The translations under genes were made by a program, and so were the position numbers. Positions 51,652-62,076 of a stretch of 64,000 nucleotides of DNA are shown piece by piece. The notes below the pieces were generated by a model. It saw only the letters and a program-made list of their open reading frames with translations, had not been told where the DNA came from and did not search any database. Each line of letters starts with the position of its first letter. Within the stretch, counting starts at the first letter, position 1. The DNA is from Candidatus Bathyarchaeota archaeon. Lineage in GTDB: Archaea > Thermoproteota > Bathyarchaeia > 40CM-2-53-6. Location: the NCBI GenBank assembly GCA_963733055.1, contig CAVTBR010000001.1, forward strand, positions 1,376,001 to 1,440,000, in the 5' to 3' direction.

Positions 51652-52638
<987 letters not shown>

Positions 52639-61646: not shown

Positions 61647-61743
61647 CGGAGTGAACGGACCTTTGTTTCATTAGAAGTTTTCAGCTTATTGAACCGACTT
61701 GTATCGGTGAATATAACAATTGAAATCTTGATATAAAATAGAT

Positions 61744-61903
61744 TGGTGCTCCGGGCGGGACTTCCGTGGCACTTAGGTGCCATTTCGAACCCGCGATCAC
61801 TGACTTTCCCTGCCCTTTAGGCTCGAAAGGCCAGTATGCTCTCGGTCTCGCTAATAGCTAGCTAACCGGGCTACACTCGGCAGACATTGGCTTCCACCGG
61901 AGC
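61744..61903 (-). tRNA. tRNA-Glu(TTC) with four introns, CCA encoded
   Basis: Exons 61894-61903, 61863-61875, 61824-61840, 61784-61805 and 61744-61760 join into a 79-nt cloverleaf; each intron has a 4-bp central helix with 3-nt bulges. Confidence 0.9.
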
Positions 61904-62076
61904 ACTAAGCACTCGGAGCGTCCTTTCGTTTGGGGGTCGTCTCAATTAACGCTTTTCCGGCAGAACGCCGCGGGACAATAAGAGGGACTGTCAGGGATGG
62001 CGATGCCGTATTTGGATTTTAGCTGCTGCTCCCAAGCCCCATACAGAGTTCGAAGTCTCTCTTGACCGCTCTCCAA

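Follow-up and report, generated by a model that had tools for sequence, protein, structure and literature searches.

Introduction

The closest described counterparts of the locus reported here are found among the tRNA genes of Thermoproteales and Asgard archaea and in the nuclear genome of a red alga. Two reviews, in their accessible text, place the maximum at three introns per tRNA gene (PMC8450103, PMC4033280). For Asgard archaea a preprint of October 2026 reports, in the portion available, "up to five in a single gene" (bioRxiv 10.64898/2026.10.13.758758), and 228 introns are given for three Asgard genomes in the accessible part of PMC11291895. The first-pass annotation of the DNA considered here had given a ceiling of three introns; this agrees with the accessible text of both reviews, but as a present limit it is outdated by the figure in the available preprint text. 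On the side of processing, (alpha-beta)2 endonucleases are described as cutting relaxed motifs in the accessible part of PMC5829648, and for tRNA-Ile(UAU) of Cyanidioschyzon merolae the order of splicing is reported to correlate with BHB stability (PMC3728597, available portion). A literature search for tRNA introns of Bathyarchaeia, or for four-intron tRNAs, returned nothing for Bathyarchaeia.

Here we describe a tRNA-Glu(UUC) gene from a Candidatus Bathyarchaeota archaeon, located in a stretch of 64,000 nucleotides that was analysed as a whole and is called the window below. It is interrupted by four introns, more than the limit of three given in the reviews, and the same number is reached at 18 of 61 distinct orthologous loci. 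It is also preceded by a short copy of its own acceptor 5′ strand, a candidate accessory element of splicing, and the evidence for this role and for the alternatives to it is considered in the second part of the Results.

Results

Structure of the tRNA-Glu(UUC) locus

The gene and its parts are arranged on the minus strand as follows.

61744..61903, minus strand: tRNA-Glu(UUC) gene, from mature nucleotide 1 to the encoded CCA; 160 nt, made up of 79 nt of exon and 81 nt of intron
61894..61903, minus strand: exon 1, tRNA positions 1-10; joined to exon 2 in relatives without intron 1 (L005, L008 and others)
61876..61893, minus strand: intron 1, 18 nt, at 10/11; bulges GGA and AGT, h′ of 2 bp, relaxed HBh′ motif
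61863..61875, minus strand: exon 2, positions 11-20b
61841..61862, minus strand: intron 2, 22 nt, in the D-loop at 20b/21; relaxed HBh′ motif
61824..61840, minus strand: exon 3, positions 21-37, holding the anticodon TTC
61806..61823, minus strand: intron 3, 18 nt, at the canonical position 37/38; strict hBHBh′ motif
61784..61805, minus strand: exon 4, positions 38-59
61761..61783, minus strand: intron 4, 23 nt, in the T-loop at 59/60; strict hBHBh′ motif, inner stem of 6 bp
61744..61760, minus strand: exon 5, positions 60-76, with CCA encoded at 61744-61746
61735..61738, minus strand: run of T just 3′ of the CCA, a possible terminator judging from its sequence

Introns make up 81 of the 160 nt (50.6%), and the exons that they separate are 10, 13, 17, 22 and 17 nt long. 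Splicing in silico gives a 79-nt product which ARAGORN reads as tRNA-Glu(ttc). Its cloverleaf is complete, the D-loop has three extra residues and CCA is encoded; all 21 stem pairs form and all 10 scored conserved positions are occupied as expected. The first-pass annotation had proposed a tRNA-Glu(TTC) gene with four introns, just over half of it intron, and every coordinate, length, helix and bulge that it gave was reproduced, with ARAGORN naming the spliced product. The five exons are colinear within the 160 nt, an arrangement that is neither that of a split nor that of a permuted tRNA gene. The gene and its four introns are supported by their structure, by the null model, by comparison with relatives and by the processing enzymes that the genome encodes, and we consider it very probable that the locus is a real tRNA-Glu(UUC) gene interrupted by four BHB introns. 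A search of sequencing runs for the locus listed 18 DNA metagenomes and none of RNA.

Detection by intron-aware search and by standard finders

The locus was searched for with a SPLITS-like finder, in which BHB candidates (a 4-bp helix with two 3-nt bulges, cut after the second bulge base) are collected and a cloverleaf is then threaded through them. Applied to the window, the finder returned the same four introns as its top match, with 21/21 pairs, 10/10 conserved positions and CCA. In a strict-BHB search of the whole genome the locus reached the maximum score of 33, tied with four obvious tRNAs, whereas the null, consisting of the reversed (not complemented) genome on five of six contig-strands, gave a best score of 31, at a single locus that needed five long jumps, and no locus scored 32 or higher. 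A chance origin of the four-intron cloverleaf is excluded.

Spurious cloverleaves do arise elsewhere in the genome once four or five long jumps are allowed, and for this reason the comparative evidence matters. The same behavior of the finder is what speaks for regarding the locus as a decaying pseudogene, or as a cloverleaf produced by the freedom to make four deletions, but this reading has next to no probability: the maximum score is attained here with short introns and was never approached as closely as 32 in the null, the exons are conserved over 61 distinct loci while the introns diverge, and the gene is the only one found for tRNA-Glu(UUC) in a genome in which GAA is the commoner Glu codon.

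Standard annotation had been expected to miss the gene, and it does. The unspliced locus is passed over by ARAGORN both by default and with -i, and the Rfam tRNA model fails to report it at the gathering threshold, at E<=10 on a 451-nt region, and in a scan of the whole genome with RF00005.

Splicing motifs and their energetics

At every junction the central helix is paired 4/4 and carries one 3-nt bulge on each side, in the register that gives the cloverleaf. H, h′ and h measure 4, 2 and 1 bp for introns 1 and 2, 4, 4 and 7 for intron 3, and 4, 6 and 5 for intron 4; strict flanking helices, with h and h′ of at least 2 bp, are present at introns 3 and 4, and introns 1 and 2 have an h′ of 2 bp and an h of 1 bp. 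Intron 3 is built on the anticodon stem and intron 4 on the T stem, the central helix of intron 2 joins CGGT of the D-loop to ACCG of the intron, and that of intron 1 pairs nucleotides 5-8 with the intron. The calculated energies of the BHBs are +2.6, +3.0, -10.1 and -18.7 kcal/mol for introns 1 to 4, respectively. For intron 4 the BHB is the local minimum-energy fold; at intron 1 the 5′ bulge is instead taken up, in the local minimum, into an unbroken helix of 7 bp, and as drawn both this BHB and that of intron 2 are thermodynamically unfavorable.

It had been proposed in the first-pass annotation that four introns imply ordered refolding and splicing. The topology of the precursor does not require this, since the four BHBs share no nucleotides and can coexist. 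A related possibility is that introns 1 and/or 2 are cut as bulge-helix-loop structures, maybe after the other introns are gone or factors are bound, in the order 4, 3, then 1 and 2. The energies fall in just this sequence (-18.7, -10.1, then +2.6 and +3.0), the fold predicted with the leader places the 3′ splice site of intron 1 in a junction loop and not in a bulge, and in Cyanidioschyzon BHB stability tracked the order of splicing, according to the available text of PMC3728597. We nonetheless judge this possibility to fall somewhat short of probable, given that the four motifs coexist with no nucleotide in common and that nearest-neighbor models penalize the 3-nt bulges which the enzyme stabilizes.

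Intron gain and loss among orthologues

Orthologues were assembled by BLAST of the precursor against 60 related genomes and by a gapped exon pattern searched for in one genome per species (86 stretches). Introns were counted after over-split long canonical introns and spurious calls past the 3′ end had been merged or filtered, and a mis-decoded locus (L015) was left out. In this sample, which consists mostly of MAGs named 'Candidatus Bathyarchaeia/Bathyarchaeota archaeon' and carries the bias of the exon pattern with which it was gathered, the 61 distinct Bathyarchaeia-type Glu(UUC) loci contain no intron in 2 cases, one in 3, two in 16, three in 22, four in 17 and an apparent five in 1; the few records from Nitrososphaerales, Nitrosocaldus and Korarchaeum have 0-1 intron. 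The call of five introns (L098) proved to be over-split, the locus having four. With it included, four introns are present at 18 of the 61 distinct loci, at 13 of which every junction has the support of the BHB rule.

Seven intron positions are used in the Glu(UUC) family (10/11, 20b/21, 34/35, 37/38, 53/54, 59/60 and 70/71), and the four-intron loci draw four combinations from them: 10/11, 20b/21, 37/38 and 59/60, as in the window; 10/11, 34/35, 53/54 and 59/60; 20b/21, 34/35, 53/54 and 59/60; and 10/11, 20b/21, 37/38 and 70/71. Each intron of the window is absent, exactly at the predicted junction, from some relative. One locus is without intron 2 (L009), another without intron 1 (L005) and a third without introns 1 and 4 (L013), while L031 has intron 1 only and L108 has none. 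Within the genus, 19 genomes could be decoded at this locus; four introns occur in 5 of them (G000, G021, G001, G020, G022), three in 10 and two in 4, and the same four introns as in the window are found in G021, G001 and G020. The exons of the same-genus loci differ from the mature sequence of the window at 2-5 of 79 positions, and the introns vary freely in sequence and length.

Helices that lie wholly within the introns covary. Among the 39 distinct introns at 59/60, each of the first three h′ pairs is present in 37-39 and is made by 3-5 types of base pair. All four pairs of H form in each of the 11 distinct orthologous introns at 10/11, as do h′ pairs 1-2, and H is likewise complete in all 35 distinct introns at 20b/21; these central-helix statistics are partly circular, because the junctions were selected beforehand for at least three central pairs.

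Other intron-bearing tRNA genes

Intron-rich tRNA genes are common in this genome. Only 13 hits of RF00005 pass the cut-off in the entire assembly, which is 96% complete. The strict finder recovers ~10 tRNAs and relaxed, end-anchored searching brings this to ~28, with ~18 expected tRNAs undecoded and some decodes doubtful; on this rough basis 2 of the 28 decoded genes have no intron, 5 have one, 12 have two, 6 have three and 3 have four, or ~59 introns in all and ~2.1 per gene. The four-intron genes are those for Glu-UUC, Gln-CUG and Pro-GGG. The Pro(GGG) gene (G000:C3:546744-546926, minus strand, with introns of 30, 21, 21 and 32 nt) devotes 104 of its 183 nt to introns, and the Gln(CUG) gene (G000:C3:209273-209429, plus strand) has introns of 19, 26, 19 and 17 nt; ARAGORN confirms the spliced product of both. 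A tRNA-Cys gene at first decoded with four introns was reduced to three, as compact relatives show a single ~32-nt intron at 8/9.

The window itself contains a second intron-split tRNA gene at 52505-52638 on the minus strand. It is class II, with the anticodon loop CTTAGGA (Leu-UAG), a perfect T-arm and CCA. Read by eye, it contains two non-canonical introns: the D-arm is interrupted by ~26 nt, and the anticodon stem, near 29/30, by 19 nt. Rfam gives a partial match only, at 18.9 bits.

The Glu(CUC) gene of the same genome (G000:C3:664775-664892, minus strand) has two introns only, at 10/11 and 59/60. Within the genus 13 of 17 copies of Glu(CUC) (L151-L158, L161-L164, L166) have four introns at the same positions as Glu(UUC) of the window. 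The positions common to the two isoacceptors suggest that the introns are older than the isoacceptor split, or that copying has occurred between the genes.

Need for the gene and enzymes for its processing

The first-pass annotation had asked for a check that the genome contains no intron-free tRNA-Glu(TTC) gene. Neither short-word BLAST of the mature sequence nor the finders revealed a credible second Glu(UUC) gene in the 96% complete genome, in whose missing DNA an intron-free copy could still lie, and in the BLAST search the exons match this locus only, with partial matches to the Glu(CUC) paralogue. An exact 15-nt copy of the Glu 3′ exon at G000:C1:1303468-1303482 (plus strand), comprising the T-stem and the acceptor 3′ strand, was rejected as a tRNA for want of a T-loop, CCA or 5′ acceptor strand nearby; it may be a chance match or the remnant of an integration site. 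GAA accounts for 55.7% of Glu codons in 971 long ORFs, at 31 per 1000 codons.

Two proteins with the PF01974 endonuclease domain are encoded in the genome. The first, of 185 aa (L001:1474-2031, minus strand), resembles the catalytic EndA alpha subunit, matching the subunits of Aeropyrum pernix and Sulfolobus tokodaii (3.6e-39 and 1.3e-38; 3P1Z_B at 3.6e-39, also 2CV8 and 3AJV_B) in an alignment that is ungapped across the Tyr/His/Lys region. The second, of 188 aa (L002:1474-2040, minus strand), is a divergent, beta-like paralogue without the His segment. The pair fits the (alpha-beta)2 type as judged from sequence. RtcB ligase (576.8 bits) and RNase P RNA (176 bits) are encoded as well, and the host thus appears equipped with a predicted endonuclease capable of acting on relaxed motifs and with the ligase to follow it.

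In the pathway that we envisage, a precursor of ~176 nt would be transcribed and would then pass through ordinary archaeal maturation. A heteromeric endonuclease of the (alpha-beta)2 type would cut after the second base of each 3-nt bulge in the four BHBs (10/11, 20b/21, 37/38 and 59/60), RtcB would ligate the five exons, and RNase P would take off the leader, CCA being already encoded.

An upstream copy of the acceptor 5′ strand

Use of nucleotides 5-8 by the intron-1 helix sets this helix in competition with the acceptor stem. The competition, recognized in the first-pass annotation, does exist, and a leader element that had gone unseen settles it in the thermodynamic model. Two features lie upstream of the gene.

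61913..61919, minus strand: leader copy of the acceptor 5′ strand, GCTCCGA, at -16 to -10; may serve as a decoy that occupies the 3′ acceptor strand
61944..61949, minus strand: TATA-like box TTAATT, at -46 to -41; kept in same-genus genes with intron 1 (L003, L004, L006, L009; also L106)

The copy in the window differs from the real strand at position 7, with A instead of G. Among the related genomes, which are not independent, so that 2x2 tables of copy against intron overstate the support, copy and early intron occur together in three gene families: GCTCCGR is present in the leader of all 12 Glu(UUC) genes with the 10/11 intron (10 of them at -16/-17, the others at -19 and -33) and of 1 of 48 without it, at -51; an exact copy is present in 16/16 Glu(CUC) genes with an early intron, at -15 to -18, and in 1/6 without (L165, in which the intron has been lost; L019 has a copy with one mismatch); and for Cys(GCA), which has a different acceptor, GCCGGGG, an exact copy of that strand stands at -11 to -13 in 18/18 genes with an 8/9 intron, with diverged flanks, and in 0/2 without. 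No exact copy was found in the leader of any of the 23 genes of the window's own genome that have no early intron. Its Gly(CCC) gene, a doubtful decode, has an intron after nt 8 and no leader copy.

The predicted folds change accordingly when the leader is included. With ViennaRNA the probability of the intron-1 helix rises from 0.12 without leader to 0.93 with the native leader for Glu-UUC, and from 0.001 to 0.99 for Glu-CUC. The 3′ strand pairs with the real 5′ strand at a probability of 0.95 (Glu-UUC) and 1.00 (Glu-CUC) in the absence of a leader, and with the copy at 0.82 and 1.00, respectively, in its presence. Shuffled leaders matched the native helix probability in 1 of 100 cases for Glu-UUC and 2 of 100 for Glu-CUC, their mean still being 0.35-0.49. 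For Cys the strand switch is likewise predicted (0.89), but the assumed central helix has zero probability with or without the leader.

The TATA-like boxes would place the start of transcription at or just before the leader copy. Two promoter classes are seen within the one genus among the Glu(UUC) genes (L003-L022): those with intron 1 have a AAAGCGTTAATTGA-like box ~41-49 nt upstream, and those without it have AAAGAACTTAAAG ~28-40 nt upstream, with flanks that are otherwise unrelated. This division suggests that whole loci were replaced, as opposed to simple loss of the intron.

These observations are consistent with a model in which the transcript would start with the 7-nt copy of the acceptor 5′ strand, the copy would pair with the 3′ acceptor strand in the precursor, and the real 5′ strand would thereby become available for the intron-1 helix; once splicing is complete, this strand would displace the copy and RNase P would then cut. 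The leader copy would in this way be a dedicated cis-acting decoy that keeps the 3′ acceptor strand occupied and thereby allows the folding and excision of an intron at 8/9-10/11. On the predicted folds and the pattern of occurrence we put this model at about even, or slightly better. No mention of a leader copy of the acceptor strand was found in the available text of the 2026 Asgard preprint, in that of PMC3218864, or in a full-text literature search, and the chances are evenly balanced that the decoy would constitute an accessory element of archaeal tRNA splicing not previously described.

The copy may, on the other hand, be a mere evolutionary scar with no role in processing, such as would remain if part of the 5′ region was duplicated when the 8/9-10/11 intron originated. 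Such an origin would explain why L165 retains the copy though its intron is lost, and duplicated pieces containing the acceptor palindrome CCGG would look alike and pair in any case; the wholly different upstream regions of same-genus genes with and without intron 1 also fit replacement of whole loci better than selection on a 7-mer. What makes a scar rather unlikely in our view is the precision of the element. The 7-mer is exact in 18/18 Cys loci and in 17/17 Glu(CUC) loci of the genus, where the adjoining spacer and upstream sequences differ in both sequence and length, and it lies at a near-fixed distance in Glu(CUC), in 10/12 Glu(UUC) and in Cys. It follows the acceptor sequence across two unrelated acceptors, and it shifts the predicted fold in the useful direction.

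A different assignment of the same nucleotides would make the upstream copy the true exon 1 and turn the spacer and second copy into a fifth mini-intron at ~7/8, leaving five introns and almost no leader. Where the repeats are exact, the mature sequence is identical whichever of the two strands serves as exon 1, and the predicted start of transcription at or near the copy would suit this assignment, as would the Cys genes, in which, at 18/18 loci, a register using all 7 nt pairs CCGG with CCGG as a 4/4 central helix and adds 2-5 bp of outer helix. For the Glu genes it failed the BHB test and was rejected: no register yields four central pairs and a flank, the host's own Glu-UUC and Glu-CUC genes reach at most 3/4 pairs with no usable flank, and a canonical motif occurs in 0/26 Glu relatives. 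The A at position 7 of the window's copy would further put an A-C mismatch into the acceptor stem, and RNase P RNA is present. We regard a fifth intron as very improbable. In Cys (L121-L139; in the host G000:C3:162492-162637, minus strand) the copy and the real strand are direct repeats 11-13 nt apart whose CCGG cores can pair with each other in a BHB-like manner at 18/18 loci, and for Cys only a 12-nt mini-intron at 7/8 is an alternative reading.

Discussion

Neither ARAGORN nor the Rfam tRNA model sees the only detectable gene for the GAA-reading tRNA, and just 13 tRNA hits are returned by Rfam for the genome as a whole; it follows that the tRNA counts of Bathyarchaeia MAGs, and the quality labels that depend on them, are too low. 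With their very intron-rich tRNA genes, Bathyarchaeia take a place beside the Thermoproteales and some of the Asgard families. The Glu(UUC) family, with 0-4 introns distributed over seven positions and 2-4 within a single genus, is good material for the study of intron gain and loss.

If the leader copy does act as a decoy, it would provide a simple rule by which a splicing motif can be made from bases of the acceptor stem without losing to the acceptor stem. It would also explain the persistence of introns at sites where splicing motif and acceptor stem compete. The high confidence given to the gene and its four introns does not extend to the decoy model, which we place near even; for the count of introns precedents exist.

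Among the described systems, the Thermoproteales (Pyrobaculum, Thermofilum, Caldivirga) are alike, in the accessible text of PMC4033280 and PMC8450103, in having short introns spliced by protein enzymes at canonical and non-canonical positions (D-arm, 37/38, 59/60), with BHB or relaxed HBh′ motifs and a broad-specificity endonuclease of the heterotetramer type. They differ in having a maximum of three introns and an average of 0.84 per gene (1.54 in P. calidifontis) according to the same portions, compared with four introns and ~2.1 per gene in the 28 decoded genes here. The available text of these reviews mentions no leader copy of the acceptor strand, and the present host belongs to mesophilic Bathyarchaeia of soil or peat. 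The nuclear tRNA-Ile(UAU) gene of C. merolae (PMC3728597, available portion) is similar in the placing of its introns, which interrupt the D-arm, position 37/38 and the T-loop and each form a BHB; it is the gene of a eukaryotic red alga, has three introns, and its processing was verified by RT-PCR, whereas the present gene is known from its sequence.

A further likeness is to Asgard Atabeyarchaeia and Freyarchaeia, in which, in the accessible parts of PMC11291895 and bioRxiv 10.64898/2026.10.13.758758, most tRNA genes are interrupted, many of them by non-canonical introns that annotators overlook. Per gene, 2.2 intervening sequences are given for the focal families there, near the rough ~2.1 found here, and with up to five introns in one gene, as stated in the available preprint text, the number at the present locus is matched or exceeded. 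The Asgard archaea belong to another phylum, the present host being a member of the Thermoproteota, class Bathyarchaeia, and the preprint, as far as its available text extends, describes no copy of the acceptor strand. In sum, an intron count of four is not unique to this locus, and it is the leader decoy that is possibly the new part.
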